Below are positions 16,515 through 36,949 of a DNA stretch of 38,948 nucleotides, piece after piece. The notes beneath the pieces are model-generated. The model made no database searches, had not been told where the DNA came from, and was given only the letters and a program-made list of their open reading frames with translations. Position 1 is the first letter of the stretch. Each line of letters opens with the position of its first letter. Made by a program: the position numbers and the translations under genes. This DNA comes from Nitrospirota bacterium (lineage in GTDB: Bacteria > Nitrospirota > Nitrospiria > Nitrospirales > NS-4), in NCBI GenBank assembly GCA_005877855.1, contig VBOF01000023.1, forward strand, positions 1-38,948. The letters are read 5' to 3'.

Positions 16515-16639
16515 GGGTTTCTCCGAGAGCCCTTTAGTATAGACGAAGTGCCGCCTGAAAGCAAGAGACGGCCGATCGGCTCATGCCGTTAGTCGTTGAT
16601 AATCAGTTGATTTCTTTCCCGAATAGGTCTTCTGGCGCC

Positions 16640-16668
16640 TTGACAGGTTCCTGAGCATGTGGTAGCGT
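16640..16668 (+). promoter_or_regulatory. Sigma70-type promoter candidate for the aminotransferase-serA operon
   Basis: TTGACA (16640-16645), a 17-nt spacer, then TAGCGT (16663-16668) with a TGn extended -10. It lies ~50 nt upstream of the ATG at 16720. Confidence 0.45.
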
Positions 16669-16719
16669 GCCCACGTCTTCATCCATCCAGCTTCCCCTGC
16701 AGAAGGAGACCCTTAGGCT

Positions 16720-22048: not shown

Positions 22049-23866
22049 ATGTTCGGCACACTGAGTACGAGGCAGAAGGCATGGGTGATCGCTGTGCTGA
22101 CCTGCTTCGCGCTCCTGTCGGTTGACGCACTCGCCACAGAGCGGCCGGCCCTGCCTGCGAAACCGCCCGGGTCAGAACAAGCTCCGGACCCGGCCGCGTT
22201 CTACCATTTCATGCTCGGCTACCAGCGCGAATTGTACAATGATGCGGGAGAGGCCGAGGCGGAGTATCTCAAGGCCCTCGCTCGCGATCCCAACTCGGTG
22301 GCGATCCATCTTCGGCTCGCGACGCTCTATCAAGCCCAGGGCGAGCATGACAAGGCTCAGGCCCACGCTGAAGCCGCGCTGGCCCGAGACGCAACGAACC
22401 TCCAGGCCCTGCACATGCTGGCGAGCGTGGCCGTGGCCGCGGGCCGAGCGGACCAAGCCATCGAACTCTACCAGCGGATCGTCGCGCTCTGGCCCCAGGA
22501 AACACAGGCCTATTCTTCCATGGCGATGTTGCTGTCAGGCCTGAAGCGGTACGACGAGGCGGAGCAGACCATCCGCCGGGGGATTGCCGTCTCGCAGACC
22601 GCGGCGCCGACCGGCTACCTCTACCTGGGTCACATACTGGTTGAGCAGAAGGCCTGGGACCGGGCCGTGCAGGCCTATCGCGACGCGCTCGCCATCAACC
22701 CTAGCTTTGAGCCGGCCCACTTGGGACTGGCCGCGACACTGGAAGCCAAGGGTGACACGGCTCAGGCCATCGCAGTTCTCCGCAAGGTGTTGCAGGAGGT
22801 CAACAAGGGCAACCGGGAAGCACGTCAGCGGCTGGTCCGCTTGCTGTTGACGCAGAAGGCTTACGAGGCCGCGCTCGCCCTCTTGCGCGAAGCCGTCCAG
22901 GAATCCCCCGATGACGTGGACGCCCAGCTCCGGATCGGGCTGATCTACGGGGAGCTGAAGGACTATGTCAAGGCGGTCGAGCAGATCAAGCGCGTACTCG
23001 CCTTGCGACCGCAGGAGCTACGAGTCCGCGATCATCTGGCTTACTTGTACGAAGAGATGAAGGAGTTCGACAAAGCCATCGCCGAATACCGGACGATCAT
23101 CCAGGCCGACGCGCGGTACTCCGACGCGCATCTCCATCTTGGCTACCTGCTCTACCGCCTGAAACGGAATGACGAGGCCCTCCCGCATTTCCAGCAGGTC
23201 ATCGTCCTCAACCCCAAGATGACGGAGGCGTATCTATTGCTCGGCCTGACCCTGCTCCAGGCGTCGCGCCAAGAGGAAGCAGTGGCGGTCTTTCGCGAGG
23301 GGCTGCTGCGCAATCCCGAAAGCGCCGACCTCCATTTCAACCTGGGGACTGCGTACGACAAGATGGGCCGGTTCGACGAGCTGGTCCATGAGATGGAGGA
23401 GGCCATCCGGCTGGATCCCACGCACGCCGATGCGCTCAACTACCTGGGTTATACCTATGCCGAGCGCGACATGCGATTGGAAGAAGCGGTGGTGTTGATC
23501 CAACGGGCGCTCGCGGTCAAGCCCCAGAACGGCTACTATCTCGACAGTCTCGCCTGGGCCCATTACAAGATGGGCCGCTTCCAGGAGGCCCTGGAAGAAA
23601 TGAAACGGGCCGTCGCCGTGGTGCCCGACGACCCTGTCTTTCTCGAGCACCTGGGCGAGATCTACCTCAGCCAGAGTCTCCTGGGCGATGCTCGCGAGGC
23701 CTGGCTCCGCTCGCTGGAACTCGATCCGACGAATCACAAGCTTGCGGAGCGGTTCAAGGCGAAGGGATTCGGGGATCCGGCCACGGAGGAGCGAATCCGG
23801 AAATCGCAGGGGGGGCTTTCCAATAAGGCGCTGTCATCTGGTAGCAATTTGGGGCCTACACGGTGA
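22049..23866 (+). CDS. Secreted multi-TPR repeat protein
   Basis: 605 aa. Signal peptide AWVIAVLTCFALLSVDALA, then about 14 TPR units (e.g. AEAEYLKALARDPNS, HLGLAATLEAKGD, ADLHFNLGTAYDKMGR). Confidence 0.75.
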   Translation: MFGTLSTRQKAWVIAVLTCFALLSVDALATERPALPAKPPGSEQAPDPAAFYHFMLGYQRELYNDAGEAEAEYLKALARDPNSVAIHLRLATLYQAQGEHDKAQAHAEAALARDATNLQALHMLASVAVAAGRADQAIELYQRIVALWPQETQAYSSMAMLLSGLKRYDEAEQTIRRGIAVSQTAAPTGYLYLGHILVEQKAWDRAVQAYRDALAINPSFEPAHLGLAATLEAKGDTAQAIAVLRKVLQEVNKGNREARQRLVRLLLTQKAYEAALALLREAVQESPDDVDAQLRIGLIYGELKDYVKAVEQIKRVLALRPQELRVRDHLAYLYEEMKEFDKAIAEYRTIIQADARYSDAHLHLGYLLYRLKRNDEALPHFQQVIVLNPKMTEAYLLLGLTLLQASRQEEAVAVFREGLLRNPESADLHFNLGTAYDKMGRFDELVHEMEEAIRLDPTHADALNYLGYTYAERDMRLEEAVVLIQRALAVKPQNGYYLDSLAWAHYKMGRFQEALEEMKRAVAVVPDDPVFLEHLGEIYLSQSLLGDAREAWLRSLELDPTNHKLAERFKAKGFGDPATEERIRKSQGGLSNKALSSGSNLGPTR

Positions 23867-23949: not shown

Positions 23950-23965
23950 TGGCAGAGTAATTGCT
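23950..23965 (+). promoter_or_regulatory. Sigma54 (-24/-12) promoter candidate upstream of pilin 1
   Basis: TGGCAG-AGTAA-TTGCT has the canonical GG/GC spacing of TGGCAC-N5-TTGC. It lies 75 nt upstream of the ATG at 24040. Type IV pilin genes are frequently RpoN/PilR dependent. Confidence 0.6.
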
Positions 23966-24039: not shown

Positions 24040-24522
24040 ATGCCCAATCGCGTGCCAAAGGGATCCCAGGGCTTTACCTTGATCGAGCTGATGATCGTGG
24101 TGGCGATCCTTGGTATCCTAGCGGCCATCGCCATCCCGAACTTTATGACCTACCAAGCCAAGGCTCGGCAGGCAGAGGTCAAGTCCATGCTTGCGGGTAC
24201 CTTCATGGCCGCTACCACAGTGATGTACGCGCAAAACGGAACGTATGTGATTACAGATATCGGTCAGCTTGGCTTTGCTCCGACCGGGACACCAAGGTAT
24301 TCCTACTGGTTTGACGTCAATGGTACACCTACACGCATCGTCGGTGGGAGCACCGCAACGGCTCCGTGCGACGTCAACAGCGCTCCAGTCGGAGTGGCAT
24401 CTTCAGGATCAGGATTTACGGCCGGAGCGAGGGGCAATATCGACAGTGATCCCACCTGTGACGATTGGCTCATCAATGACACCAAAATTCTCACGAATAT
24501 CAGCAATGATGTTACCAGCTAA
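24040..24522 (+). CDS. pilA: Type IV pilin (class III signal peptide), paralog 1
   Basis: MPNRVPKGSQG|[37 protein letters not shown] shows a prepilin cleavage site and Glu+5. Two C-terminal Cys are present. GAAGGA Shine-Dalgarno 6 nt before the ATG. The track ORF starts at an upstream GTG at 24019. Confidence 0.9.
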   Translation: MPNRVPKGSQGFTLIELMIVVAILGILAAIAIPNFMTYQAKARQAEVKSMLAGTFMAATTVMYAQNGTYVITDIGQLGFAPTGTPRYSYWFDVNGTPTRIVGGSTATAPCDVNSAPVGVASSGSGFTAGARGNIDSDPTCDDWLINDTKILTNISNDVTS

Positions 24523-24530
24523 AGGGGCGA

Positions 24531-24561
24531 CAATTTGTGACGGCCTCTCAGACACAAATTG
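24531..24561 (+). terminator. Weak hairpin after pilin 1 (possible partial terminator/attenuator)
   Basis: CAATTTGTG (24531-24539), a 13-nt loop, then CACAAATTG (24553-24561), 9 nt after the stop. The stem is AT-rich and has no clear U-tract. Confidence 0.3.
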
Positions 24562-24756
24562 CCATCTTCTCGGAAGCTTCAGAGTCACGGTTCAAGACTT
24601 TTGGACGTTTTCCTGGCAAAGATGGTTGCCCGGTGACGGCACGGGTATTGCTCTCTTTAAGAGGAAAGGCGACCGTGGGGCCAGGGGTGAGAGGATTCAA
24701 GAAGAGCGGATGGTACGGTCGTGAAGGATAACGTTTAACCACAAGGAGGGTTTGCG

Positions 24757-25215
24757 ATGTTGGATCGGATAAAAGGGAACAAGGGCTTCACCTTGATCGA
24801 ATTGATGATCGTGGTCGCGATCATCGGGATTTTGGCGGCGATCGCCATCCCGAACTTCATGACCTACCAGGCCAAGTCCCGGCAGTCGGAGGCTAAGGTG
24901 GGGCTTGGCGGTATCTTCACCACCGCGACGTCGTACTTCGCCGAGAATGGAACGTTCAGTGTCCTGCCCAGCGGCCTTGGCTACGCTCCGGCCGGGTCAC
25001 CGAAGTACACGTTCTCCTATAATGCGACTCAAATCAACACCGTCGCAACTGCCACTATTTGCAATGGCGTGACGACAGTTGTTGCGCCTGTTGCTACCGC
25101 CTCAGCGTTCACGTCCGGGGCCAGAGGCAATATTGACGGTGATCCCAGCTGTGACGAGTGGACGATCAATGACGTTCGGGCCCTGGTCAATACGGCCAAC
25201 GATGTGGCCAGTTAA
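24757..25215 (+). CDS. pilA: Type IV pilin (class III signal peptide), paralog 2
   Basis: [10 protein letters not shown]|[45 protein letters not shown] Shine-Dalgarno upstream. The C-terminal tail [18 protein letters not shown]...NDVAS is shared with paralog 1. Confidence 0.9.
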
Positions 25216-25243
25216 CCATTAGGGTCTGACAGGAACAGGAAAA

Positions 25244-25277
25244 GAGGGCCCCCGAGTGGGGGCCCTCGATTCTTGTT
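25244..25277 (+). terminator. Rho-independent terminator after pilin 2
   Basis: Perfect 10-bp GC stem GAGGGCCCCC (25244-25253), loop GAGT, GGGGGCCCTC (25258-25267), followed by the T-rich GATTCTTGTT. Confidence 0.75.
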
Positions 25278-25320
25278 GCAGAGTGCAAACAGGGCATGGG
25301 TGTCTTCGTGACGCCTCTCC

Positions 25321-27288
25321 ATGCCAGTACAAGAATCCCGTCGCATTTATAGTCCGCTCGTCGTCCTGGGCGGTCTCACGATCTTCGCGCCGCTCATCGA
25401 CGGCGGGACCACGCATCTGCCGGTCCTGATCATCCGACTCACCCTCCTGGTGGCTGCGACGGTCTGGACCATTGCCTCGTTGAAATCCGGGCGGATCACT
25501 GTGCCGTGGAGCCGGCTCTTCGTCCCTATGGCGATTTTTCTGGGGTGGGCTACTCTCTCCATCCTCTGGTCTCCGTACACCGCGATCAGTCTCCAGTGGC
25601 TTCTCAGCCTCTTCAGCTATGCACTGATGCTGTTTTTCGTTCTGCTGCTTGTTGACTCGCCCTGGCAGGTTCGGGCTCTGGTGATGGTGATTCTGGGGAT
25701 GGGTCTCTTCGAAGCCGGGGTGGGGATGTACCAATATCTGTGGCTTCGCCAGCCCAGATCCACCGGGACCTTCTTCAATCCCAACTTTTTCGCGACCTAC
25801 GAGGTGGCCACCTTTGCGGTGGCCTTCGGGCTACTGTGCTTCCGGGGACGAGAAGATGGCTTCAGATGGGCAAACCCCCTGTTGTGGCTCACGCCCTTGG
25901 TGGTCGGACTTGCGTTTGTGCTGGCCCAATCACGAGGGGGCCTGCTGGCATTCGTGGCGTCTGGGGCATTCATTGGACTCTCACGGTTCGGCAAGCCCTT
26001 TCTGGGCATCCTCTTGCTGGGTTTCGTCCTAGGCGCTCTTGTTCCCAATCCTCTCCAGCAGAGGATTCTGGCGGTCGGAACGAAAGACCCTTACGCCTTT
26101 ACCCGGCTGGACATCTGGAAGAATTCAGTAGAGCGCATAGCCGATCACCCATGGGGCGTGGGTCTGGGAATCTACAAGTACACCTCATTCCGGTATCGCT
26201 TTCCCATCGAAGGGTCAATCGCGCGGTTCGCAAAGCGGGCGGAATCTGCCCACAATGACTACTTGCAAATGGCTGTGGAGTTAGGAGTGGTGGGGCTGGT
26301 CATGTTTCTGGTGGGCCTAGGGTTCTTGGGGTGGGAAATCAGGGAGACTTTGCGCCTTGGCCTGGCGCCCTGGGAAAGAGGGGCGGTCATCGGATTGAGC
26401 GGAGGGATCCTGGGTATCCTGACACATGGTGCCGTGGACGCGGTGTTTCATGAACCAGCGATCGTCCTTCTCCTCTGTCTGTTTGCGGGATTGATCTTGG
26501 TCCTGCGACGGATGAGGACGTCCGGTTCCTTCTCGGTTGTGGAGGTGCCATTTGCGTATCGACCCATCAGGGCAGTTTTGATCGTGGTTCTGGCTGCCTT
26601 GCTGGGCATTCTTGTCATCCGTCCAGCCGCCGCGTGGTACGCCTTTGACGAGGGAGAACGCGAAATGGCAGTCGGCCGTGTCGGTCACGCGTTGGATTGG
26701 TATCAATGGGCCACGTACATCGACCCCGGCACCAGCAGCTACCACGATGCCGTAGCGGCCACGCAGGTTCGTCTCTATCGGCAATTCGGGGCGGTGAAGC
26801 ACCTTCACGGCGCTGCCAGTGAGCTTCAGGTCGCCTTGGAACTGAACCCACTGGATGCCCGATTAGCCAATCAGTTGGGACAGCTCTTTGTCTTGCTTGC
26901 TGAACAAGCCCCCACGAAAACAGAGCGGCAGGCGTTGCTGGAGGACGCTGAAGGGCATTATGAACAGGCAAGCCAGCTGGATCCCTATTCGCCCTTCAAC
27001 TATTTCGAGCTGGGCAAGCTGCAATGGGCCCAGGGGCGTGTGCCTGAGGCGATGGCCTTGTTCACGCGGGCAACAAGTTACGAACCCAATTTCCTGCCAG
27101 CACGGCTTTACCTGGCCGAGCTCTTGTTAACGACTGGGCAGAAAGAGAGGGCAGCCTCGGAATACACCGAAATCCTGAACATCAAAGAACGCTACCAAGC
27201 ACGGGCTGCCACGAGCCTTGAGCGACAGTACCTGGAAGTCGACCTTGACCACCTCCGACGTTCATTGGCTAGGGTGGAGGCGTCATGA
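25321..27288 (+). CDS. O-antigen ligase family (Wzy_C) membrane protein fused to C-terminal TPR repeats
   Basis: 655 aa and polytopic. LAQSRGGLLAF and AESAHNDYLQMAVELGVVG are typical of the WaaL/PglL/TfpO family. The C-terminal ~220 aa are TPR-like (HYEQASQLDPYSPFNYFELGKL..., FTRATSYEPNFLPARLYLAELL...). Confidence 0.8.
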   Translation: MPVQESRRIYSPLVVLGGLTIFAPLIDGGTTHLPVLIIRLTLLVAATVWTIASLKSGRITVPWSRLFVPMAIFLGWATLSILWSPYTAISLQWLLSLFSYALMLFFVLLLVDSPWQVRALVMVILGMGLFEAGVGMYQYLWLRQPRSTGTFFNPNFFATYEVATFAVAFGLLCFRGREDGFRWANPLLWLTPLVVGLAFVLAQSRGGLLAFVASGAFIGLSRFGKPFLGILLLGFVLGALVPNPLQQRILAVGTKDPYAFTRLDIWKNSVERIADHPWGVGLGIYKYTSFRYRFPIEGSIARFAKRAESAHNDYLQMAVELGVVGLVMFLVGLGFLGWEIRETLRLGLAPWERGAVIGLSGGILGILTHGAVDAVFHEPAIVLLLCLFAGLILVLRRMRTSGSFSVVEVPFAYRPIRAVLIVVLAALLGILVIRPAAAWYAFDEGEREMAVGRVGHALDWYQWATYIDPGTSSYHDAVAATQVRLYRQFGAVKHLHGAASELQVALELNPLDARLANQLGQLFVLLAEQAPTKTERQALLEDAEGHYEQASQLDPYSPFNYFELGKLQWAQGRVPEAMALFTRATSYEPNFLPARLYLAELLLTTGQKERAASEYTEILNIKERYQARAATSLERQYLEVDLDHLRRSLARVEAS

Positions 27289-28163
27289 GCAGCGCTGGAC
27301 AGTATGCAGCGATTTCCACGTCTACTGTGATCCTCATCATGGGATTGCACTTCCTTCAGGTCCGGCTTGATGAGCAGCGCGCCCCCATCACGCAGTTTCA
27401 GCGGTTCATGTACTTACCTCAAGGCGAGCATTTGAAAATCGCCGCCTTGGGTTATCAACACGTGGTGGCCGATCTTCTCTGGATACAGGTTATCCAGGCT
27501 ATGGGAGAGCGTCAGGTGACAGAAGAAGCCGGCCACTGGATCTACCGGGCGTTGGATATCATCACCACATTAGACCCCAAGTTTGTCCGGGTCTATGAGG
27601 TCGGAGGCATCGCGCTGACGACGCTGGTAGTCCACATTGACGAGAGCAACCGGATCCTGGAGAAGGGGATCCAGCACAATCCTGACGTTTGGACGCTGCC
27701 CTTCTTGCTCGGGTTCAACTATTACTTCGAGTTGCATGATGACGCCAAAGCGGCCGACTATATCGCCAAGGCTTCCCGCCTCCCTGGGGCGCCCGAGTAC
27801 CTCGCGAGCTTCGCCACCCGGCTCTATGTCTCGGCTAGGGAGCCGCAAGTCGCCATCGACTTTCTGGCCCAGATGTATGAGCAGACCTCAGATGAGAACA
27901 TCAAACGGATCCTCGAGCAACGGCTGAAGGAGGTCGTGGTAGAGCGGGATCTCCAGCTGCTCGAGAGGGCCATTAGCCGATACCGGGAGCGGTACACACG
28001 GGCACCCGAGCGTTTAGAGGACTTGGTGACTTCAGGGCTCCTGCGCTCGTTGCCCCGCGAGCCGTTCGGTGGCCGCTACCTCTACGACCCGCAGACGCAG
28101 ACGGTGCGCAGCAGTGAGATGAAGGAACGGCTGAAAGTGTACGGCAAAAGGAGACCGCGATGA
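27285..28163 (+). CDS. Hypothetical membrane-anchored helical-repeat protein (positional PilG analog)
   Basis: 292 aa with an N-terminal TM helix (AAISTSTVILIMGLHFL) and a helical, TPR-like remainder. ATGA overlaps on both sides. I recognise no family with confidence. Confidence 0.5.
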   Translation: MSSAGQYAAISTSTVILIMGLHFLQVRLDEQRAPITQFQRFMYLPQGEHLKIAALGYQHVVADLLWIQVIQAMGERQVTEEAGHWIYRALDIITTLDPKFVRVYEVGGIALTTLVVHIDESNRILEKGIQHNPDVWTLPFLLGFNYYFELHDDAKAADYIAKASRLPGAPEYLASFATRLYVSAREPQVAIDFLAQMYEQTSDENIKRILEQRLKEVVVERDLQLLERAISRYRERYTRAPERLEDLVTSGLLRSLPREPFGGRYLYDPQTQTVRSSEMKERLKVYGKRRPR

Positions 28164-29089
28164 CCCCGATTCGCACAGACGGGCTGACCAAAGAGTTTCG
28201 TCTCGGCCTCGGTCGCCAACGCGTCGTGGCATTGGACCGCTTGAACCTGGAGGTGCACCAGGGCGAGATCTTCGGATTTCTGGGGCATAACGGGGCTGGC
28301 AAGACCACCACCATCAAACTGCTCTTGGGCCTGCTCGCCCCGACTGCCGGACAGGCCTGGATTCTGGATCGGCCGATCGAGGACGTCACCATCAAGCAAC
28401 AGGTGGGTTTTCTCCCGGAGGCCCCGTATTTCTATGAATACCTCACGGCAGAGGAGTTTTTGACCTTCTATGGACAGCTCTTTGGCCTTGGCGGAGCGCC
28501 GCTAACGAAGAAAGTCGAGGAGTTGTTGGAGATGGTCGCCCTGACCGACGCACGTCGTCTCCAGCTCAGAAAATTCTCGAAGGGCATGCTCCAACGGATC
28601 GGCTTGGCGCAGGCGTTAATCAATGACCCTGCCTTGGTCGTTCTGGACGAGCCCATGTCGGGGCTGGATCCCATTGGGAGGCGGGATGTTCGTGATATCA
28701 TACTTAGCCTCAAGGAAGAAGGGAAAACCGTGTTCTTCAGCACCCATATCCTCCCGGATGTCGAGATGATCTGCGATCGGGTGGGCATTCTCGTGCGGGG
28801 ACGTCTCCGGGCCGTGGGGACCGTCCAGGACTTGGTGGGAACAAGCGGCGTCGCTTCCGTCGAAATGGTCGTCGCGGGGCTGACCGACGCCGGCATTCAG
28901 GAAGCCGAGAGGCAAGGCGGGAAGGTGCTTCGCAGAGGAGCGCAGGTCTTGCTCAGACTGGATGATCCGAGCCGGGTGGACTCTCTTGTGGAGCTGGTTC
29001 TCCGATCGGGCGGCCGGCTGGTGTCTCTGGTGCCGCACAAGCGCACGCTGGAAGACCTTTTTCTTGAACAGGTGAAGGCAGGTCTTTGA
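28160..29089 (+). CDS. ABC transporter ATP-binding protein (ABC-2 subfamily)
   Basis: Walker A GHNGAGKTTT, signature variant FSKGMLQR, Walker B LVVLDEP and H-loop FSTH. Confidence 0.9.
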   Translation: MTPIRTDGLTKEFRLGLGRQRVVALDRLNLEVHQGEIFGFLGHNGAGKTTTIKLLLGLLAPTAGQAWILDRPIEDVTIKQQVGFLPEAPYFYEYLTAEEFLTFYGQLFGLGGAPLTKKVEELLEMVALTDARRLQLRKFSKGMLQRIGLAQALINDPALVVLDEPMSGLDPIGRRDVRDIILSLKEEGKTVFFSTHILPDVEMICDRVGILVRGRLRAVGTVQDLVGTSGVASVEMVVAGLTDAGIQEAERQGGKVLRRGAQVLLRLDDPSRVDSLVELVLRSGGRLVSLVPHKRTLEDLFLEQVKAGL

Positions 29090-29856
29090 TGAGCCGGATC
29101 ATTGTGATTGCGCTGAACACCTTCAAAGAGAATCTCCGAGACAAGATTCTCTATAACCTGGTGTTCTTTGGCCTGCTCTTGATCGGCAGTTCGATTCTGT
29201 TGAGCACCTTGACCATGGGGGAGCAGGCCAAGATCATTCAAGACATTGGGCTGGCAAGCATCAATCTCTTCGGTGTCATCATCGCGATCTTCGTCGGGAT
29301 CGGTTTGGTCAGCAAGGAGATTGAGAAGCGGACCATTTATACGATCCTTGCGAAGCCCGTTCAGCGGTATCAATTTCTTCTCGGACGGTACTGCGGATTG
29401 GCTCTCATTCTTTTGGTCAATACTGCGATCATGGTGGTGGGGTTTTTTTTCATTCTCCTCGTCGGAAAGATCAGCCTGGGCTCAGGACTCATCAAGGCGA
29501 TTAGCTTGATCTATATCGAGCTCTTGGTGATCGTGGCAGTGGCCGTCATGTTTTCCAGCTTCACGACGCCGACGCTGAGCGCCAGTTTTACCTTGGCGAT
29601 TTGTGTCATTGGCCATCTGACCGCTGATCTCAGGGTGCTGGGCGCCAAGCTCCAGAATGAGCTGACGAAGGGGATTCTTGACGGACTGTACTACATGCTT
29701 CCCAACCTCGAGTACTTCAACGTGAAGGGCCCGGCTGTGCACGGCATTGCGATCGCGCCGCTGTACGTCGTCTCAGCGATAGCCTACGGGGTCCTCTACA
29801 GCGCGGTGATTTTGCTGATCTCCTGCGTGATCTTCCAGCGAAGGGATTTCAAATGA
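29089..29856 (+). CDS. ABC-2 type transporter permease
   Basis: ~255 aa with six predicted TM helices. The ATG at 29089 overlaps the ATPase stop (TGATG). The track start is TTG at 29086. Confidence 0.75.
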   Translation: MSRIIVIALNTFKENLRDKILYNLVFFGLLLIGSSILLSTLTMGEQAKIIQDIGLASINLFGVIIAIFVGIGLVSKEIEKRTIYTILAKPVQRYQFLLGRYCGLALILLVNTAIMVVGFFFILLVGKISLGSGLIKAISLIYIELLVIVAVAVMFSSFTTPTLSASFTLAICVIGHLTADLRVLGAKLQNELTKGILDGLYYMLPNLEYFNVKGPAVHGIAIAPLYVVSAIAYGVLYSAVILLISCVIFQRRDFK

Positions 29857-30662
29857 CCTCCCCACCCCCACGCGCAAGATCACCGCACCGAGGCCGGGAC
29901 GATCTGAGTCGATTCCAGCGGCTCCAGGTCGAGCATTTCGCGCGCGCGGATGAGGCCAAGTTCCTGTGGCAGACACAGGACGCATACTTAGCCAAGACCG
30001 AGCGAGCGCTACTGGACCGCGTCCCGGTGAAGAGCTCCGATCGGTTGCTGGAGGTGGGATGCGGCGAAGGCGGTAATCTCCAACTGCTGGGGCTCACTCC
30101 CCTGAGTGCGGTGGGCGTTGATTTCTCCCACGCCAAGGTCAGCTGGGCTCGGCATCATTGTGGGGCGGCTAGGTTCGTGTGTGCGGATGGGACACGCCTT
30201 CCCTTCCAGGACGAAACATTCGATGTGGTCTTATGCCGGGATGTCCTCCACCACACCGTAGACAAGTCAGAAGTGGTCGGAGAGCTCATCCGTGTGTGCC
30301 GCGCATTCGGACGAGTCGTGATCATCGAGCCCAACGGCGGCAGTCCGATCGTAGGATTGCTAGGCCTGCTGGTGGAGGCGGAGCGCGAGCTACTCCGAAA
30401 CTCGTTGGGCGGCGTGCTCGCACTGCTGGATCGAGGACAAGTCGCCGAGCCCGATGTGAGCTGGGCGCAGCCGTTTCCCGCAGGCCGGGTGTTATTCCAC
30501 TACCGCTGGGGGCTGCCTCGTCTCTCTGCCTGGTTAGCGGGCGCGGTGCTTGCGGCTGAGCGGCTGATCGGCCGGCTCGTGCCGACGGAACGATGGGCGT
30601 ACATGATCATCACAACGGTCAAGACCGCCTCGGGCAAACCAGTCGTCTCCGAAAGCGTATGA
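29853..30662 (+). CDS. Class I SAM-dependent methyltransferase
   Basis: Motif I LLEVGCGEGGNL, then FDVVLCRDVLHH and GRVVIIEPN. ATGA overlap with the permease gene. Confidence 0.8.
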   Translation: MTSPPPRARSPHRGRDDLSRFQRLQVEHFARADEAKFLWQTQDAYLAKTERALLDRVPVKSSDRLLEVGCGEGGNLQLLGLTPLSAVGVDFSHAKVSWARHHCGAARFVCADGTRLPFQDETFDVVLCRDVLHHTVDKSEVVGELIRVCRAFGRVVIIEPNGGSPIVGLLGLLVEAERELLRNSLGGVLALLDRGQVAEPDVSWAQPFPAGRVLFHYRWGLPRLSAWLAGAVLAAERLIGRLVPTERWAYMIITTVKTASGKPVVSESV

Positions 30663-30672
30663 GGATCAATCT

Positions 30673-32166
30673 GTGAGACTGCAACAAGAACGCGCGGTTC
30701 CCCGGTTTCAGCCATCCGGCAACGGTCAAGCGACGGCGCCTCGCGTCGTCAGTTCCACAGACAAGGCGCGTGCCTTTTTCGATGCGCTCGCACCGACGCG
30801 GGATCGCGACAAGACGCGTCACTGGTATTACTACCGGTACCTGACGGCGTTTCTCCAGTTCGTTGTGCCACCGGGGCAGCGGGTGCTCGAGGTGGGATGC
30901 GGGACCGGAGATCTTCTGGCCGCTGTCGATCCGGTGGTCGGGGTCGGCCTGGACATCAGCCACGCCATGCTCACGATCGCGCGGCGCAAATACCCACACC
31001 TACATTTTGTCCAGAGCGATGCCCATGGTCCTGCTCTGTCCGGTCGCTTCGACTACATCATCCTCTCAGACCTTGTCGGGGATCTGGAAGATGTGCAGGA
31101 GGCCTTTGCCCGCTTGAAACACTTGGCGGGTCCCGGAACCCGTCTGATCATCACGTATTACAACTACCTGTGGGAACCCGTGCTCAAGCTCGCGGAGCGC
31201 CTGGGGCTCAAATCTCCGCAGAACGTCCAGAACTGGTTGCCAGTAGACGACATCGAGGGGTTTCTCGCGCTCTCTGGCTTCGCGACGATCCGCAAGGGCT
31301 ACCGGCTCCTCCTTCCCGTGTACCTTCCCGGCCTGTCCTGGTGCTGCAACACCATCCTGGCGCATCTGCCGGGGGTACGCCGCCTCTGCTTGACCCAATA
31401 CCTCATCGCGCGGGTCGCGCCTGATCCGGCCGACCGTCGCGAGTACTCGTGTTCGGTGATCGTTCCGTGCCGGAACGAGGCCGGGAACATCAGGGAGATC
31501 GTCAACCGGACGCCGTCGCTCGGAGCGGGCACCGAGGTCATCTTTGTGGACGGTAATTCCACCGATGGCACCGTGGATCGCATCCAAGAAACCATCGCGA
31601 GCTATGAGGGACCCAACACGATCCGGTTGATCCACCAGGGCGAAGGGGTTGGGAAGGGCGATGCGGTGCGCAAAGGATTCGAGGCGGCCACGGGGGAGCT
31701 GCTCATCATCCTGGACGCAGACGTGAGCGTGGATCCTGAGGCGCTCCCCAAGTTTTACCACGCGATCGTTGAAGGCCATGGCGAATTCGCTAACGGGAGC
31801 CGCATGGTGTATCCCATGGCGAGTCAGGCGATGCGCCTGCTCAATCTGATCGGCAACAAGGTCTTCAGCATGATCTTTACCTGGCTCCTGGAACAACGCC
31901 TCCGGGACACCCTCTGTGGGACGAAGGCGTTGCTCCAACGGGACTACGAGAAGATCAAGGCCGGCCGATCTTACTTCGGCGACTTCGATCCATTTGGCGA
32001 CTTCGATCTCCTGTTCGGCGCGGCCAAGCAGAACCTGAAAATCGTGGAACTGCCGGTCCGCTACCGGGATCGCACGTACGGGGAGACCAAAATCAGCCGA
32101 TTCCGGCATGGTCTGCTCCTGCTGCGGATGTGTTGGATCGCCTACAAGCGGTTCAGGCTCTATTGA
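30673..32166 (+). CDS. Fusion protein: N-terminal SAM methyltransferase plus C-terminal GT2 polyprenol-phosphate glycosyltransferase (DPM1/GtrB/ArnC-like)
   Basis: N-terminal domain: VLEVGCGTGDLL and FDYIILSDLVGDLED. C-terminal domain: CSVIVPCRNEAGNI, VIFVDGNSTDGT, GKGDAVRKG, ILDADVS and RTYGETKIS. GTG start 7 nt after GAGGA. Confidence 0.8.
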   Translation: MRLQQERAVPRFQPSGNGQATAPRVVSSTDKARAFFDALAPTRDRDKTRHWYYYRYLTAFLQFVVPPGQRVLEVGCGTGDLLAAVDPVVGVGLDISHAMLTIARRKYPHLHFVQSDAHGPALSGRFDYIILSDLVGDLEDVQEAFARLKHLAGPGTRLIITYYNYLWEPVLKLAERLGLKSPQNVQNWLPVDDIEGFLALSGFATIRKGYRLLLPVYLPGLSWCCNTILAHLPGVRRLCLTQYLIARVAPDPADRREYSCSVIVPCRNEAGNIREIVNRTPSLGAGTEVIFVDGNSTDGTVDRIQETIASYEGPNTIRLIHQGEGVGKGDAVRKGFEAATGELLIILDADVSVDPEALPKFYHAIVEGHGEFANGSRMVYPMASQAMRLLNLIGNKVFSMIFTWLLEQRLRDTLCGTKALLQRDYEKIKAGRSYFGDFDPFGDFDLLFGAAKQNLKIVELPVRYRDRTYGETKISRFRHGLLLLRMCWIAYKRFRLY

Positions 32167-32225
32167 GAAAGCGTGGCGCGGCTGGCTGCGGACGCTGAAG
32201 GCCTTCTTGAGATGGGAGCGTGGTT

Positions 32226-33383
32226 ATGAGAGTGCTGGCGGTTGTGCCCCCCGATCCATGGGTGGAGGTGAATGTGCTGCAAACGCTTCGCCAGCACTAC
32301 TGCGAAGACCTCTATGTCTTCCTTTGTCCGGAAGAGAACCAATTGGGACTCCGACAGTGGAGGGCCCGACGCGATGCCTTAAACGAAGACTTGGTACGTC
32401 TCGCAGGAAGCCTTCGATCAACCGGGCGTCTGGACGTGATCTTTTTCATTGTTTACGACGATTTTCTGACAGTCGAGACCGCAAAGAGATTGCGGGCCAT
32501 GGGCGTGGCGATGATCAATTACCATATCGACATGGTCTTCCAGTGGTATCGGGTCATCCGTACGGCTCCATTCTTTGACTTGCTCGCGGTCGCCCAAATG
32601 TCGAATGCTGAGCATCTGGCCGCCTACAATCCGAATATCGAATGGATGCCCATGGCCGCGAATCCGAGCTTTTATCACTCGCGTGCGGGAACCGTCCCCG
32701 CTTACCAGTACCAAGTTTCGTTCATCGGCAGTTTTAATCCATACCGACGTGCGCTACTCGCCGAGTGCGTTCGAAGAAACCTCACTCCGGTAGTATTCGG
32801 ACAGGGCTGGCGGAGTGGGGAGTCCCAGGGTCGGAAATTCAAATGGGACCCGTATAAGGTGCTTCACGATCTTCGATTTTATGCGGTGCCGCGATGGCGG
32901 GTAGAGGGGCTTGCAAGCGTGACGGGTCCGATCACGCGAAAGTATTCGCGGTGGCGCGCGTTAAAGCCTCCCGCCGGCCTGGATTGCCGAGGACCCTGCG
33001 AGACCGAAGCGCTCCCCGCCATTTTCAGAGTCAGCCAGGTGAATCTGGGCTTCTCCGACACAGGCTGGCACAGCAAGAAAGGCATTGTTCGATCCGGGAT
33101 GCTGCAGTGTCGCCTTCGAGACTTCGAAGTCCCCATGTCCGGAGGGTTTTATCTGGTTCAGGAAGCGCCAGACCATCGCGAATATTACGTGATCGGCAAA
33201 GAGATTGAGACGTGGTCTGCGCCCGAAGAGCTCGTCGATAAGGTGAAGTTTTATTCCCGTAACGAAGAAGCCGCTCGGCGAATTCGTGAAGCCGGACAGA
33301 AACGGGCGCTTGAAAGTCACACCTGGCGCCATCGGTTTGATCGCCTGTTTGTTCGACTGCGATCGGTCGGAAGGCTGTCGTGA
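32226..33383 (+). CDS. CgeB-like glycosyltransferase (DUF3880 / Glyco_trans_1_2 type)
   Basis: Contains FIGSFNPYRRALL, and the C-terminal LRDFEVPMSGGFYLVQ...ELVDKVKFYSRNEEAARRIREAGQKRALESHTW resembles CgeB/YkvP family tails. ATG at 32226 behind GGGAG. Confidence 0.55.
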   Translation: MRVLAVVPPDPWVEVNVLQTLRQHYCEDLYVFLCPEENQLGLRQWRARRDALNEDLVRLAGSLRSTGRLDVIFFIVYDDFLTVETAKRLRAMGVAMINYHIDMVFQWYRVIRTAPFFDLLAVAQMSNAEHLAAYNPNIEWMPMAANPSFYHSRAGTVPAYQYQVSFIGSFNPYRRALLAECVRRNLTPVVFGQGWRSGESQGRKFKWDPYKVLHDLRFYAVPRWRVEGLASVTGPITRKYSRWRALKPPAGLDCRGPCETEALPAIFRVSQVNLGFSDTGWHSKKGIVRSGMLQCRLRDFEVPMSGGFYLVQEAPDHREYYVIGKEIETWSAPEELVDKVKFYSRNEEAARRIREAGQKRALESHTWRHRFDRLFVRLRSVGRLS

Positions 33384-33402
33384 GTGCCTGGATAGAAGCG
33401 AG

Positions 33403-34242
33403 ATGAACCTACAAGAGGCTGAAAGTAGCACGATCCTGATCACACCTGCCCAGGGCTGGGTCTCACTGCACCTGAAAGAACTTTGGGAGTATCGGGAGCT
33501 TTTCTATTTCCTGGTCTGGCGGGACATGAAGGTTCGTTATAAGCAGACCATTCTAGGCGTGGCATGGGCAATCCTCCAACCGGTCTTCACGATGTTCGTG
33601 TTCACGGTCTTTTTCGGCTGGCTGGCTCACATGCCTTCTGATGGAGTGCCCTATCCCATCTTTGCCTACTCCGCGTTGCTGCCCTGGCAATTATTTGTCC
33701 GGTCGCTAACTGCCTCGAGCAATAGCGTGGTGGCGAATGAGAACCTCATCACGAAAGTGTACTTTCCACGGCTTGTGGCGCCTCTCTCTGCGACGGTGGC
33801 TGGCGTGTTGGACTTCGCGATTGCCTCTGTGGTGCTGTTCGTCATGATGTGGTTCTACCATATTGTACCAACGAGTGCTGTGTGGTTGCTCCCATTGTTC
33901 GTGCTGCTGGCGATCGCCACCGCATTAGGCGTTGGATTATGGCTCTCGGCGTTGAACGTACAGTATCGCGATGTGGGACATGCCATCCCATTCCTGACAC
34001 AAATCTGGTTGTTTGTTACGCCGATCGTCTATCCCAGCAGCCTAGTACCGGAGCCATGGCGCATCGTGTATGGGCTTAATCCGATGGTCGGTGTGGTCGA
34101 GGGTTTCCGGTGGTCGTTGTTGGGAACGGGAAGCGGACCTGGCGGCATACTGACGGCATCGACGTTGGTAGCCTGCGCGTTACTGGTCTCCGGCATGTTC
34201 TATTTTCGTCGCATGGAGCAAACGTTTGCGGATACGGTGTGA
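33403..34242 (+). CDS. wzm: Polysaccharide ABC exporter permease (ABC-2, Wzm/TagG type)
   Basis: LWEYRELFYFLVWRDMKVRYKQTILGVAWAILQPVFTMFVFTVFFG is the hallmark Wzm/KpsM N-terminal motif. ATG at 33403; the upstream part of track ORF 33286.. overlaps the previous gene. Confidence 0.85.
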   Translation: MNLQEAESSTILITPAQGWVSLHLKELWEYRELFYFLVWRDMKVRYKQTILGVAWAILQPVFTMFVFTVFFGWLAHMPSDGVPYPIFAYSALLPWQLFVRSLTASSNSVVANENLITKVYFPRLVAPLSATVAGVLDFAIASVVLFVMMWFYHIVPTSAVWLLPLFVLLAIATALGVGLWLSALNVQYRDVGHAIPFLTQIWLFVTPIVYPSSLVPEPWRIVYGLNPMVGVVEGFRWSLLGTGSGPGGILTASTLVACALLVSGMFYFRRMEQTFADTV

Positions 34243-34245
34243 GCC

Positions 34246-35556
34246 ATGGGTGATACTGCCATCCGTGTAGAAAACGTATGCAAACGCTATCGCATCGGCC
34301 AGCGCCAACGGTACAAGACTCTCCGTGACGCGCTGTTTGGCGTCATGGGTACGCCGTTTCGAGGCCTAGGTGCGTGTTTGAGTGGTCAAGGTACATCGAA
34401 GAGCTATCAGGAATCAGACAACTTTATCTGGGCGCTCAAAGATGTATCCTTTGAGGTCAAGCGTGGAGAAGTCATTGGCGTCGTCGGGCGGAATGGGGCT
34501 GGCAAGAGCACGCTCCTGAAAATTCTGTCTCGTATCACTAAGCCTACGAAGGGCTTCGCGGAGATCCATGGCCGTGTGGGGTCGTTGCTGGAAGTGGGCA
34601 CCGGTTTTCATCCGGAACTGACTGGTCGCGAGAACATTTACCTGAACGGCGCCATTCTCGGAATCAAGAGAAAGGACATAGATCGCCGGTTCGATGAGAT
34701 CGTGGCTTTTGCCGAGGTGGAGAAGTTTATTGATACTCCCATTAAGCATTATTCGAGCGGGATGTACCTGCGCTTGGCTTTTGCCGTAGCCGCCCACCTA
34801 GAGCCGGAAATTCTGCTGGTGGACGAGGTGCTTGCCGTAGGTGATGTCGCCTTCCAGAAAAAATGTATGGGCAAGATGGGAGATGTGGCCAAAGAAGGAA
34901 GGACAGTGCTGTTGATAAGCCATAATATGGCGGCGGTGGAAAACCTGTGCCAGCGAGGGGTGGTCCTTCACCAAGGGCAGATCACATATATCGGTAACCA
35001 GGCTGAGGCTATCGCTCAATACCTGAAAAGCCTAAGCGGGAACGCGCTCTCTTTGATGGATCGAAAGGACCGCATTGGATCCGGCGCCGTGCGAGTGGTC
35101 GGCATCGAAGTAAAAGATGTGCATGGGAATACCCTTGATTCTGTAGCCAGTGCTCAAGACCTGGATCTTTACCTTTACTTCGTGACCGCAACCGGTTTCC
35201 GCAGTCGGAGGGTCATTGCCAGCCTGCTTTTGAAGACTCAGTTGGATGTGCCAGTCTTTCTCCACCACAATCGGCTGACCGGCGATGAGTTTGGGGAATT
35301 GCCTGAATCGGGCGCCTTTGTCTGTCGTTTGCAACGGTTGCCGCTGCCGCCCTCCACCTACCAGATTACGTACAGCATCCTGGCAGATGGAGAGTGCCTC
35401 GATGGGATCACCAATGCTGTCGAGATGACGGTCGTCGAGGGTGATTTTTTCGGGTCTGGCGAGGTTCCGCCGATCAGTCACGGCGTGTGCTTGGCCGAGG
35501 GCAGGTGGAGGCTACTGCCCGGGTGCGCTCCTTCGGGTCTCAGAAGGCAGTCATGA
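34246..35556 (+). CDS. wzt: Polysaccharide ABC exporter ATPase with C-terminal glycan-binding (Wzt_C-like) domain
   Basis: Walker A GRNGAGKSTLLK, signature YSSGMYLRLAFA and Walker B LLVDEVLAVGD. An extra ~170 aa beta-rich C-terminal domain is present, as in Wzt proteins that recognise capped O-polysaccharide. Confidence 0.85.
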   Translation: MGDTAIRVENVCKRYRIGQRQRYKTLRDALFGVMGTPFRGLGACLSGQGTSKSYQESDNFIWALKDVSFEVKRGEVIGVVGRNGAGKSTLLKILSRITKPTKGFAEIHGRVGSLLEVGTGFHPELTGRENIYLNGAILGIKRKDIDRRFDEIVAFAEVEKFIDTPIKHYSSGMYLRLAFAVAAHLEPEILLVDEVLAVGDVAFQKKCMGKMGDVAKEGRTVLLISHNMAAVENLCQRGVVLHQGQITYIGNQAEAIAQYLKSLSGNALSLMDRKDRIGSGAVRVVGIEVKDVHGNTLDSVASAQDLDLYLYFVTATGFRSRRVIASLLLKTQLDVPVFLHHNRLTGDEFGELPESGAFVCRLQRLPLPPSTYQITYSILADGECLDGITNAVEMTVVEGDFFGSGEVPPISHGVCLAEGRWRLLPGCAPSGLRRQS

Positions 35557-36203
35557 GCAGGAACCTGGTATCCCACATCCGACAGGTGGTGAGGGCTTTC
35601 GTTGGTCGTGACGATCTTACCGAGCCGCTTGAGGTGAAACGGTCTGAGTGGAGGTTCTATCTAGATTATTTGCCGAGCAGCGCGGGGTTCAAACAGTTGA
35701 AAACCGCTTGTGAGTTATCCGGTCGAAGCAATATCGTGTTGAGCAACGTCGCGTTGGCGGACCGAGAGGGTGTTGTCAAACTGCATGTCTATGATCGCGA
35801 CCACCTGAGTTGGAGCTCCCTGGCCGAACGCCCTTTGCATAGATATGGACTTCCCGTGCAGTCAGTGGGGACAGAGGAGGTTCTGGCAACCACTGTTGAC
35901 GCCTTTTGTGAGAAAAATGCCATCTCCCGGATCGACTTGCTCAAAATAGATGTTGAAGGCGCGGAGTATCAGGTCCTGCTTGGCGCGCGATGCATGCTGC
36001 AAGAGAAACGCGTCCGCTGTTGCGTTTTCGAATTTGGCGCGACCACGTTCGATATGGGCAACGACCCTGACGCCATTGAGGACTACTTAACTGGATTGGG
36101 CTATCGGCTTCGCAATATCGTGAGCCGAGATCCCGTCTTCCCCGGGCGCACTGGTGCCGAGGCGGCGCGCTTTTCCATGCACGTGGCGACACCTGAGCCA
36201 TGA
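35553..36203 (+). CDS. FkbM-family methyltransferase-like protein, N-terminally degenerate
   Basis: NVALADREGVVKLHV and LLKIDVEGAEYQVLLGA are typical of FkbM/Methyltransf_21. The expected DxGANxG SAM loop is not visible. ATGA overlap with wzt. Confidence 0.6.
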   Translation: MSRNLVSHIRQVVRAFVGRDDLTEPLEVKRSEWRFYLDYLPSSAGFKQLKTACELSGRSNIVLSNVALADREGVVKLHVYDRDHLSWSSLAERPLHRYGLPVQSVGTEEVLATTVDAFCEKNAISRIDLLKIDVEGAEYQVLLGARCMLQEKRVRCCVFEFGATTFDMGNDPDAIEDYLTGLGYRLRNIVSRDPVFPGRTGAEAARFSMHVATPEP

Positions 36204-36949
36204 TACGAGAAGCCTCTTGGATGCTGCGATATGCCGGCCGTTCGCTTCGCGACACGGTGCGCGCATGGCCCCGTGGACTTGCTGGATGGAAGAAATTCTG
36301 GGCGAGCTATCTGCAGTATACGCGGATGGCTCCGTCGGACCGACAGCCGCTGGTGGGTTTTTTATATCCCTGCCTGGGCGATGATACGGCAGAAACTCCC
36401 ATCGAGCCCACGTACTTCTACCAGGATGCCTGGGCGTTTGAAAAAATAGTGCGAAACCGCCCCGTTCGACATGTAGATGTCGGCTCTCACTACAAGTTCG
36501 TCGCGTTGCTTTCGAAAGTCGTTCCGGTCACGATGGTGGATTTGCGACCGCTCTCGCTGCCCCTCGACTCAGTCGCATTTGAGAAGGGTTCGATTTTGAA
36601 TTTGCCCTTCGCGAGCCGCTCGGTGCCCTCCGTCTCCAGTCTGTGTGTTGTGGAACACATCGGCTTGGGGCGCTACGGCGACCCCCTCGACTCGTTCGGT
36701 TCTGAACAGGCTATTCAGGAACTCAGGCGTGTTGTCCAGCCCGGTGGAGACCTGTACGTGTCCGTTCCTCTCGACGACGAGAATCGCGTCTATTTCAACG
36801 CGCATCGGGCTTTTCGCGAGGACTACGTACTGAAGTTGTTCGAGCCCTTCCAGGTTGTGGAGCGCCGGTATATCTATGGCAAAACTTTTACTGACCGACT
36901 TCAGCCAGGGTTCGGCATAGGGTGCTATCACCTGAAATGCAGGTGTTGA
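36200..36949 (+). CDS. SAM-dependent methyltransferase-like protein (DUF268/Methyltransf_11-like)
   Basis: HVDVGSHYKFVALL..., ILNLPFASRSVPSVSSLCVVEHIGLGRYGD and VVQPGGDLYVSVP. ATGA overlap with the preceding gene. Confidence 0.55.
   Translation: MIREASWMLRYAGRSLRDTVRAWPRGLAGWKKFWASYLQYTRMAPSDRQPLVGFLYPCLGDDTAETPIEPTYFYQDAWAFEKIVRNRPVRHVDVGSHYKFVALLSKVVPVTMVDLRPLSLPLDSVAFEKGSILNLPFASRSVPSVSSLCVVEHIGLGRYGDPLDSFGSEQAIQELRRVVQPGGDLYVSVPLDDENRVYFNAHRAFREDYVLKLFEPFQVVERRYIYGKTFTDRLQPGFGIGCYHLKCRC

Follow-up and report, generated by a model that had tools for sequence, protein, structure and literature searches.

Two pilin genes and a ligase-TPR gene in tandem

The window analysed here is a stretch of 38,948 nucleotides (nt) from a Nitrospirota bacterium (GenBank assembly GCA_005877855.1, contig VBOF01000023.1, forward strand). 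Its homologues and related loci likewise point to Nitrospirota (Nitrospirales). Our subject is the gene at 25321..27288 (+), which codes for a protein of 655 amino acids (aa) with 13 transmembrane (TM) helices, hereafter called the ligase, in which a Wzy_C domain is joined to a periplasmic C-terminal TPR domain. It lies 105 nt past the second of two pilin genes and on the same strand. An earlier interpretation made from the letters alone (the sequence-only reading) had suggested that these three genes form a pilin O-glycosylation module.

The pilin genes are pilA1 (24040..24522, +), for which an ATG start was taken, a GTG at 24019 being likewise open, and its paralogue pilA2 (24757..25215, +); their products end in NDVTS and NDVAS, respectively, and are type IVa prepilins according to Pfam and NCBIfam. 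The sequence-only reading had seen here two tandem type IV pilins with a G|FTLIE prepilin site and two Cys each, and this was borne out: both open reading frames (ORFs) are present, both proteins have the G|FTLIE site and a short leader, and both matched Pfam N_methyl (E = 2e-10 for PilA1 and 7e-10 for PilA2), with Pilin_PilA reaching 34 bits for PilA1. The best curated model for the pilins was the Myxococcus-type PilA, which aligned across the N-terminal ~100 residues only. PilA1 and PilA2 are 55% identical, contain two Cys apiece and share the tail ARGNID.DP.CD.W.IND...NDV(T/A)S, whose final residue is Ser. In their leader, cleavage and methylation site, hydrophobic alpha1-N helix, disulfide loop and sigma-54-like context, both have the features of type IVa major pilins.

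Sites resembling sigma-54-type promoters were found ahead of both pilin genes, TGGCAG-N5-TTGCT at 23950..23965 (+), 75 nt upstream of pilA1, and CGGCAC-N5-TTGCT at 24637..24652 (+), 105 nt upstream of pilA2. When up to one mismatch was allowed, the motif occurred three times in the window, two of these in the two pilin upstream regions, and its looser core form GG-N10-GC was present upstream of 50 of 98 pilins from related loci, versus 0.02 expected per upstream region. Neither pilR nor pilS was found in the window. The terminator previously noticed between pilA2 and the ligase gene was recovered as a G+C-rich hairpin at 25244..25267 (+), with 10 bp, nine of them G-C pairs, followed by a T-rich tail, and might be a terminator or an attenuator. 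Of 70 Nitrospirota loci, 99% have a strong hairpin behind their last pilin gene (median -28 kcal/mol in 40 nt), so the ligase and the ATP-binding cassette (ABC) genes behind it are probably expressed separately or by attenuated read-through.

The description of the third gene as a polytopic protein of the Wzy_C/O-antigen-ligase family with SRGG and AHNDYLQ..ELG motifs and a TPR extension of ~220 aa also held. A hidden Markov model search matched both Wzy_C and TPR models: Wzy_C (PF04932) scored 69.9 bits (E 2.7e-19, cut-off 31.7) with the entire profile covered, over residues 193-330 (25897..26310, +), and TPR families of Pfam covered about residues 540-625 (TPR_19, E 7.8e-12). SRGG occupies residues 204-207 and AHNDYLQ..ELG residues 310-322, and the extension behind the membrane part measures 219 aa (residues 437-655; 26629..27285, +). 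Within 58 homologues, S204, R205, G206, R262, H311, E320, L321 and G322 were invariant, and R205, R262 and H311, which lie within or beside a large periplasmic loop, were invariant also in 11 distant family members that are mutually 22-33% identical (R208, R265 and H315 in alignment numbering). WaaL R215, R288 and H338 have been reported to be important for function and to be conserved in PglL (PMC3643930). R215 of E. coli K-12 WaaL aligned with R205 of the ligase in hhalign, an alignment that is statistically weak (E 0.35) and informative for the local register only; matched by eye, R262 in FTRLDIW corresponds to R288 in GARLAMY, and H311 in AHNDYLQ to H338 in LHNEIIE. By its sequence, the ligase is thus a member of the superfamily of Wzy_C proteins, WaaL and O-oligosaccharyltransferases (O-OTases), with an intact catalytic triad. 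The features of the pilins, the hairpin and the ligase described so far go far beyond what chance would produce.

A search of the Protein Data Bank by sequence returned only TPR proteins with the whole ligase and nothing meaningful with the membrane part alone. Since TPR structures swamped the fold search with the full-length protein, a separate AlphaFold2 (AF2) model of residues 1-444 was used (predicted local distance difference test, pLDDT, 81.7; predicted TM-score 0.86). Its closest fold in Foldseek was the cryo-EM structure of WaaL (7tpg, chain 7tpg_B; E 1.4e-7, TM-score 0.57/0.62), with RodA as a distant next structural match. The chain crosses the membrane nine times before the catalytic loop (residues 246-317) and four times after it, whereas WaaL, which has 12 TM helices, has three behind the loop. 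The additional 13th helix (26572..26628, +), absent from WaaL, was indicated by hydropathy, by the positive-inside count and by an AF2 helix at residues 415-443. Because of this arrangement of nine plus four helices and the positive charge of the cytoplasmic loops, the TPR domain shares the periplasmic side of the membrane with the catalytic loop. The domain forms about five helical hairpins, as seen with Pfam, AF2 and Foldseek, with a pLDDT mostly of 85-95, and its best Foldseek matches were the TPR superhelices CTPR, OGT, SPY and MamA.

The ligase gene is followed on the same strand by three genes that resemble Myxococcus pilG, pilH and pilI by position. The first, at 27285..28163 (+), codes for P292, which spans the membrane once, has a helical domain resembling TPRs and belongs to no Pfam family. 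P292 had no NCBIfam match either, and searches for its homologues, started from P292 itself or from a distant protein similar to it, returned only unnamed or 'TPR repeat' proteins. Its gene is followed by those for an ABC ATPase of the DrrA/GldA type (ABC309; 28160..29089, +; Pfam ABC_tran) and an ABC-2 permease (29086..29856, +; Pfam ABC2_membrane_2). Next comes a glycan-assembly region (29853..36949, +) whose content, as judged by Pfam, differs among related loci and which here contains genes for a methyltransferase, a methyltransferase-GT2 (glycosyltransferase 2) fusion, a GT1-like protein, Wzm, Wzt with the carbohydrate-binding domain Wzt_C, an FkbM methyltransferase and a further methyltransferase. 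This region is likely to be the source of the lipid-linked donor glycan. Five methyltransferase domains were counted in 29853-36949, including MT269, the MT-GT2 fusion, an FkbM type and a DUF268/MT type. The methyltransferases, together with Wzm/Wzt, suggest a methyl-capped glycan exported by an ABC transporter, as in E. coli O9a-type O-antigens or in the S-layer glycan of Geobacillus, whose pathway is ABC-transporter-dependent.

Linkage of the ligase to pilus genes within and beyond Nitrospirota

A scan with one genome per species yielded 80 loci, all of them from Nitrospirota, with ligase identities of 34-64%; those numbered L017-L080 belong to Nitrospira and Nitrospiraceae. In 71 of them sufficient upstream DNA was available, and a pilin gene was found directly upstream of the ligase in 70 of these 71 informative loci. 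The sole exception (L063, positions 1-2650) has ORFs similar to IS110 and IS3 transposases upstream of the ligase and no pilins; from its sequence, a mobile element has replaced or displaced the pilin region. The constant block of the Nitrospirota loci consists of hisS, dnaB, TPR605, one to three pilins, ligase-TPR, P292, the ABC ATPase and the ABC-2 permease, while the glycan genes past it vary, being of either the GT/Wzm/Wzt or the methyltransferase/GT2 kind. Since the housekeeping genes hisS and dnaB are syntenic too, the linkage in Nitrospirota taken alone could be inherited gene order.

In order to look beyond this phylum, a profile search was run against 1.84 billion cluster representatives (one per 50%-identity cluster). 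The Wzy_C and TPR fusion was present in at least 533 representatives at E<=1e-30, with end-to-end matches and lengths mostly of 600-700 aa (typically about 630-700). A few larger fusions of 1041-1460 aa carry the ligase-TPR unit at their C-terminus (P0348, P0357, P0368, P0371, P0376, P0381 and P0389); in locus L086 a larger ligase-TPR fusion (6001-9198) lies within a YfhO/GT2/GT4 glycan cluster.

Eleven distant loci have a pilin directly upstream of the ligase, namely L087, L089, L090, L091, L095 and six metagenome loci. The orders found were pilT-pilC-pilS-pilR-pilA-ligase-P292-like in L087; pilin and ligase in L089; an uncalled pilin, ligase, a 236-aa protein, ABC, ABC-2 and genes for an aminotransferase and a methyltransferase in L090; lptD, pilin, ligase, a 261-aa protein and ABC in L091; and pilin, ligase and P292-like in L095. 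The proteins of L091 and L095 served as seeds for the metagenome scan, which gave seven loci of a GC-rich lineage, six of them with upstream DNA. All six informative loci contain one or two pilins 22-180 nt upstream of the ligase, and the gap between pilin and ligase in this lineage can be as short as 22-30 nt. In candidate division TA06 (L081), the ligase stands directly after pilB-pilT-pilC-pilS-pilR and before sugar-nucleotide, Wzx and glycosyltransferase genes, and this locus showed no ORF for a pilin. In the window, in L081 and in L090, the ligase gene is situated at the boundary between pilus and glycan genes. Because the association recurs in distant lineages with different surroundings, it is not just inherited synteny. 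The linkage of a ligase gene lying 3' of pilins, proposed from the window, is therefore kept in relatives, contrary to the outcome that the sequence-only reading had named as a refutation, a ligase gene never linked to pilins in orthologous loci.

The downstream genes recur as well, and with them the ligase gene heads a conserved set of ligase, PilG-like, ABC and ABC-2 genes that the sequence-only reading had missed. P292 homologues lie downstream of the ligase in L087, L088, L090, L091, L095, L096 and L099, and the full module is visible in L096. The Desulfobacterales locus L094 codes for homologues of all three downstream proteins, with identities to the window copies of 43% for P292, 56% for the ATPase and 55% for the permease; glycan genes flank this trio on one side and pilD plus minor pilins on the other, with no Wzy_C gene adjacent. 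The genes that precede this trio (L094, 1-9000) code for a GT-C protein of the TMEM260_N type, a GT2, a 650-aa TPR protein, two B12-radical-SAM proteins, LPG_synthase_TM, a methyltransferase and a polysaccharide deacetylase, so that an unusual glycan or lipid modification cluster abuts the pilus genes there.

Upstream of the pilins, TPR605 (22049..23866, +) is a secreted or membrane-anchored TPR protein of 605 aa by Pfam, with one N-terminal hydrophobic segment; it matched the NCBIfam models type_IV_pilW (136 bits) and Tgl (113 bits), in each case under the cut-off, and its position upstream of the pilins is kept in the Nitrospirota loci and in L099. It may be a pilus assembly factor of the PilF/PilW/Tgl kind. 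Genes for membrane proteins of the YfhO family (GT-C-like) form a run at 4640-11785 (-). In this run the ORFs 10622-11785 and 9411-10892 overlap and match only the N-terminal and only the C-terminal part of the YfhO profile, respectively, and may be one frameshifted gene or an assembly error. A 659-aa polytopic membrane protein without a Pfam match is encoded at 13308-15287 (+), with a YDELAYH motif recalling GT-C glycosyltransferases; a TPR/YfiO-like protein (12486-13253) adjoins it, and the ligase fusion of L086 likewise stands amid YfhO and TPR genes. At 15300-16514 (-), between this GT-C-like gene and serA-like, hisS and dnaB, lies a gene for an SLT-domain lytic transglycosylase with LysM. 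The ORF at 16603-17805 (-) was set aside as probably spurious, as its translation is implausible and of low complexity and an ORF of 380 aa overlaps it on the other strand.

Pilin terminus and disulfide loop as candidate acceptor sites

According to the sequence-only reading, the C-terminal Ser of the pilins would be the acceptor, as it is for TfpO, and the shared tail would be conserved up to this residue. We compared 101 pilins from 70 Nitrospirota loci. The tail is indeed conserved in relatives as far as ...NDV, ending at [ND]-D-[VAIL] in 97 of the 101 pilins, but the next 0-4 residues, including the terminal Ser, vary. The last residue is Ser in 26 pilins, Thr in 16 and Leu in 17, the others ending in N, G, K, I, F, A, V and so on. 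No pilin ending in Ser is encoded in 48 of the 70 loci, and none ending in Ser or Thr in 34. Terminal Ser is nevertheless enriched (26% versus 7% in overall composition), as is terminal Ser or Thr (42% versus 17%), and a Ser or Thr occurs among the 0-4 residues past the NDV motif in 64 of 97 pilins. The pilins linked to the ligase in distant loci end in V, Y, S, F and Y, and those of the GC-rich lineage in F, L, F, V, N, F, F and F. The codon of the PilA1 C-terminal Ser (24517..24519, +) thus specifies a residue that is not conserved in relatives. Because the ligase is universally retained with intact catalytic residues despite these variable pilin ends, the system does not require a terminal Ser, and the acceptor logic borrowed from TfpO did not stand. 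The idea that the TPR domain docks the ...NDV tail, in the way the TPR domains of Hop and PEX5 bind C-terminal peptides, was also set aside, since the distant linked pilins have no such tail.

A different region appears in the loop between the two Cys residues, which are present in 86 of the 101 pilins. PilA1 has there a stretch rich in S, T, A, G and P, SAPVGVASSGSG (24379..24414, +), and PilA2 a Ser/Thr/Ala/Pro-rich stretch of 12 residues (25072..25107, +), and both are candidate glycosylation regions. In the related pilins, the 12-mer that precedes an invariant F-T-(A/S)-G-A in this loop had an S/T/A/G/P content of 0.77 versus 0.47 elsewhere in the head domain and an S/T content of 0.29 versus 0.19 (Wilcoxon p 4e-12), and it contained at least one Ser or Thr in 94 of 95 pilins. 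It resembles the disulfide-bounded ComP sequon CTGVTQIASGASAATTNVASAQC used by PglS (PMC9829042) and the low-complexity sites of PglL (PMC3643930). On these sequence features, the stretch in the disulfide loop would be a better acceptor candidate than the terminal Ser.

Apart from the acceptor question, both Cys are lost in 11 of the 101 pilins, which retain the GN.D.D...D.W..ND...NDV tail. This tail, at about 24430-24510 in pilA1 and about 25120-25205 in pilA2, contains unusually many invariant Asp and Asn residues; it looks structural and is possibly a metal (Ca2+)-binding motif.

Function of the ligase-TPR protein

Several characterised systems share parts of this arrangement. TfpO, TfpM and PglS are Wzy_C enzymes dedicated to pilins (PMC9829042). 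TfpO (PilO; P. aeruginosa group I and Acinetobacter) and TfpM (Moraxellaceae) resemble the window ligase in the Wzy_C domain, in the conserved catalytic His and in being encoded immediately 3' of a pilin gene and co-oriented with it; as donor they take a lipid-linked glycan from a pathway that makes surface polysaccharide (PMC9829042). Compared by description only, these enzymes have 420-470 aa, no TPR domain and a strict C-terminal Ser/Thr, whereas the window ligase has 655 aa, a 13th TM helix and a TPR domain and stands beside pilins of variable terminus. PglL of Neisseria and PglS of Acinetobacter baylyi share the Wzy_C domain, the conserved Arg/Arg/His and a frequent pilin adjacency, 21 of 31 PglL homologues adjoining pilin genes (PMC3643930), and they modify internal Ser residues, which lie in loops of low complexity or bounded by a disulfide, similar to the window pilin loop (PMC3643930, PMC9829042). 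They differ from the ligase in size and C-terminal architecture, and a PilG-like/ABC module is not part of pgl systems.

The TPR fusion, which the sequence-only reading did not know to be described, has precedents. TfpW, which glycosylates pilin in P. aeruginosa group IV (Pa5196/PA7), has 646 aa and 11 predicted TM helices; it is likewise polytopic, with a periplasmic C-terminal TPR domain that was modelled best on OGT, and its gene lies 3' of pilA (bioRxiv 10.1101/2020.04.19.049825). However, it is a GT-C arabinosyltransferase similar to ArnT and Emb, with a DDX motif, which transfers single D-arabinofuranose units, while the window protein is an en-bloc transferase of the Wzy_C/WaaL type. 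The DDX motif was not seen in the first periplasmic loop of the ligase, which reads (I/E)GGTTH, and ArnT (5f15) ranked 45th (E 1.7) among the Foldseek matches of the membrane model, versus WaaL first. A C-terminal TPR motif has also been reported in WsfB and PglL, and WsaB has a TPR protein, WsaA, encoded next door (PMC2943079). WsaB (Geobacillus stearothermophilus) and WsfB (Paenibacillus alvei) are Wzy_C O-OTases with a TPR element, neighbouring in the former and fused in the latter, and the Geobacillus cluster contains WsaE, a rhamnosyltransferase/2-O-methyltransferase, where the window has Wzm/Wzt and several methyltransferases (PMC2943079). These systems differ in being Gram-positive, with an S-layer protein as acceptor and no pilin or PilGHI-like context.

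Our preferred reading, which we regard as evenly balanced between right and wrong and which is drawn from comparison of genes and models, is that the 655-aa protein would belong to a new subfamily of O-oligosaccharyltransferases, directed at pilin or associated with the pilus; the pairing of pilin and ligase probably marks a pilin glycosylation system. The enzyme would transfer a preassembled glycan linked to undecaprenyl diphosphate (Und-PP) to the type IVa pilins encoded upstream and possibly to other envelope proteins. The products of the downstream methyltransferase, glycosyltransferase and Wzm-Wzt genes would build this glycan and flip it to the periplasmic face, where the catalytic loop with R205, R262 and H311 would bind the lipid-linked donor as in WaaL. 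The 13th TM helix would set the TPR superhelix in the periplasm beside the catalytic loop, as a docking surface for the protein acceptor; TPR domains are found in TfpW and in OGT-type enzymes as well. The acceptor would most likely be a Ser or Thr in the disulfide-loop stretch of the pilin, following the logic of PglS and PglL and not that of TfpO. The ligase would be made at a much lower level than the pilins, with their own sigma-54-type promoters and the strong terminator behind them, and would be co-expressed with the PilG/H/I-like ABC module.

A number of observations speak against this assignment. The activities of O-OTases and WaaL are inseparable by sequence or fold, and the single solved relative is a WaaL. 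The kinship with PglL that had been supposed was not supported by the family profiles, as neither PglL_A (PF15864) nor Wzy_C_2 matched the membrane part in Pfam at E<=10. A Wzm/Wzt pathway downstream is equally what a WaaL would serve. Pilins and ligase are separated by a strong terminator in 99% of the Nitrospirota loci, and with hisS and dnaB inside the synteny the conservation is partly simple inheritance. Outside this phylum, L088 has the order ligase, 317-aa protein, ABC and ABC-2 with a non-pilin gene directly upstream, and no pilin gene was found in the 4.8-6 kb upstream in L082/83, L084/85, L086 and L092. As to the acceptor site, the C-terminus offers no single conserved Ser/Thr position, and the loop proposal rests on composition, exposed pilin loops often being rich in S, T, A and G.

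A wider proposal, which we find doubtful and offer tentatively, takes the ligase-TPR protein, the PilG-like protein and the ABC-2 transporter as one pilus-associated module that would constitute a further class of pilin O-oligosaccharyltransferase beside TfpO, TfpM, PglL, PglS and TfpW. The TPR domain would capture the pilin in the membrane, the glycan would be placed onto its Ser/Thr-rich loop, and the PilGHI transporter of Myxococcus, for long without an explanation, would be a remnant of such machinery for handling glycan or pilin, or a partner in it. The module would be widespread in Nitrospirota, Desulfobacterota, TA06 and further uncultivated lineages.

It is unlikely, in our estimation, that the protein is instead the WaaL of this lineage, ligating the methyl-capped polysaccharide exported by Wzm/Wzt to lipid A-core, in a pilin neighbourhood that was simply inherited and with a TPR domain that would contact, for instance, Lpt or chain-length components. 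The proteins have the same fold and catalytic residues, WaaL also uses a periplasmic Und-PP-glycan donor, and 7tpg, from Cupriavidus, was the best structural match. The genes downstream form a cluster of the ABC-dependent O-polysaccharide type, with a Wzt carbohydrate-binding domain and methyltransferases, a pathway that needs a WaaL, and a second Wzy_C gene was not seen in the DNA examined. Moreover, the ligase is constant where the glycan genes vary, as with waaL and O-antigen loci, the Nitrospirota synteny extends to hisS and dnaB, and lptD adjoins the pilin in L091. However, the adjacency to pilins recurs in distant and differing surroundings, including pilBTCSR(A) clusters and gaps of 22-30 nt, a position for which a lipopolysaccharide (LPS) enzyme has no reason. 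E. coli waaL is found among the waa genes for the LPS core, whereas the window ligase is found among pilus genes, with no waa core genes within the window. The WaaL proteins compared (7tpg and E. coli) have 403-419 aa and no TPR domain, to our knowledge no characterised WaaL carries one, and TPR domains are typically modules for protein docking.

In another explanation, which we likewise think improbable, the ligase would work in a PilGHI-type machine together with the PilG-like protein and the ABC-2 transporter, and would attach or polymerise a pilus-associated polysaccharide or modify a pilus or envelope component other than the major pilin. We know of no Wzy_C gene between pilA and pilGHI in Myxococcus. 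Pili and exopolysaccharide are genetically coupled in both Myxococcus and Geobacter. In Geobacter, the gene cluster GSU1498-1508 presumably adjoins pilA (GSU1496), as judged by locus tags. This cluster is an exopolysaccharide cluster with an ABC transporter (PMC3495685). In M. xanthus, the gene order is pilA-pilG-pilH-pilI-pilD, PilG, PilH and PilI (MXAN_5782-5780) are required for piliation (PMC3724824, PMC6060248) and the pilG/H/I mutants are without pili (PMC3724824). The order of ligase, P292-like protein, ABC ATPase and ABC-2 permease was found in all Nitrospirota loci and in L088, L090, L091 and L096; the trio of L094 stands directly before pilD and minor pilins, mirroring pilG-pilH-pilI-pilD; and no pilin gene is adjacent to the ligase at the TA06 locus. 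Nonetheless, P292, ABC309 and the permease are likened to PilG, PilH and PilI only by gene order, in which pilA is followed by a gene of uncharacterised product and then by those for the ATPase and the ABC-2 permease, and the commonest immediate neighbour of the ligase is a major-pilin gene. The Arg/Arg/His triad is the signature of ligases and O-OTases and not of Wzy polymerases, and a glycan pathway dependent on an ABC transporter has no need for Wzy.

Partly nested in our preferred reading is the proposal that the ligase acts in the manner of TfpO and TfpM and attaches the glycan to the Ser at the C-terminus of each pilin. PilA1 and PilA2 do both end in Ser, the enrichment of terminal Ser and the Ser/Thr residues just past the NDV motif agree with it, and the gene order is that of TfpO and TfpM (PMC9829042). 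It seems very unlikely to us all the same, given the many loci without a Ser or a Ser/Thr end in which the ligase is still conserved and, from its residues, apparently active, the distant linked pilins that end in V, Y, F, L or N, and the absence of a TPR domain from TfpO and TfpM. A role as Wzy polymerase ranked low, given the conserved Arg/Arg/His triad of WaaL type and a local glycan pathway that depends on an ABC transporter.

The adjacency of Wzy_C transferases to pilins (TfpO, TfpM, PglS and PglL) and the presence of a TPR domain in a pilin glycosyltransferase are already known. What appears to be new in the searchable literature is the subfamily that combines a Wzy_C core, a 13th TM helix and a TPR domain, its breadth across Nitrospirota, Desulfobacterota-like lineages, TA06 and further uncultivated lineages and its fixed partnership with PilG/H/I-like genes. 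Should the protein turn out to be a TPR-bearing WaaL, it would be modestly interesting, as a curiosity of architecture. Wzy_C enzymes that O-glycosylate pilins have been known almost only from Proteobacteria, from pathogens and their relatives, and the large uncharacterised subfamily described here is linked with type IV pilus genes both in nitrite oxidisers and in other environmentally important, mostly uncultivated lineages. If our preferred reading is true, pilin glycosylation would reach new phyla, the ligase would provide a new oligosaccharyltransferase scaffold with a built-in domain for acceptor docking, of interest for glycoengineering, and there would be a testable lead on the role of the PilG/H/I-type ABC module beside pilA.

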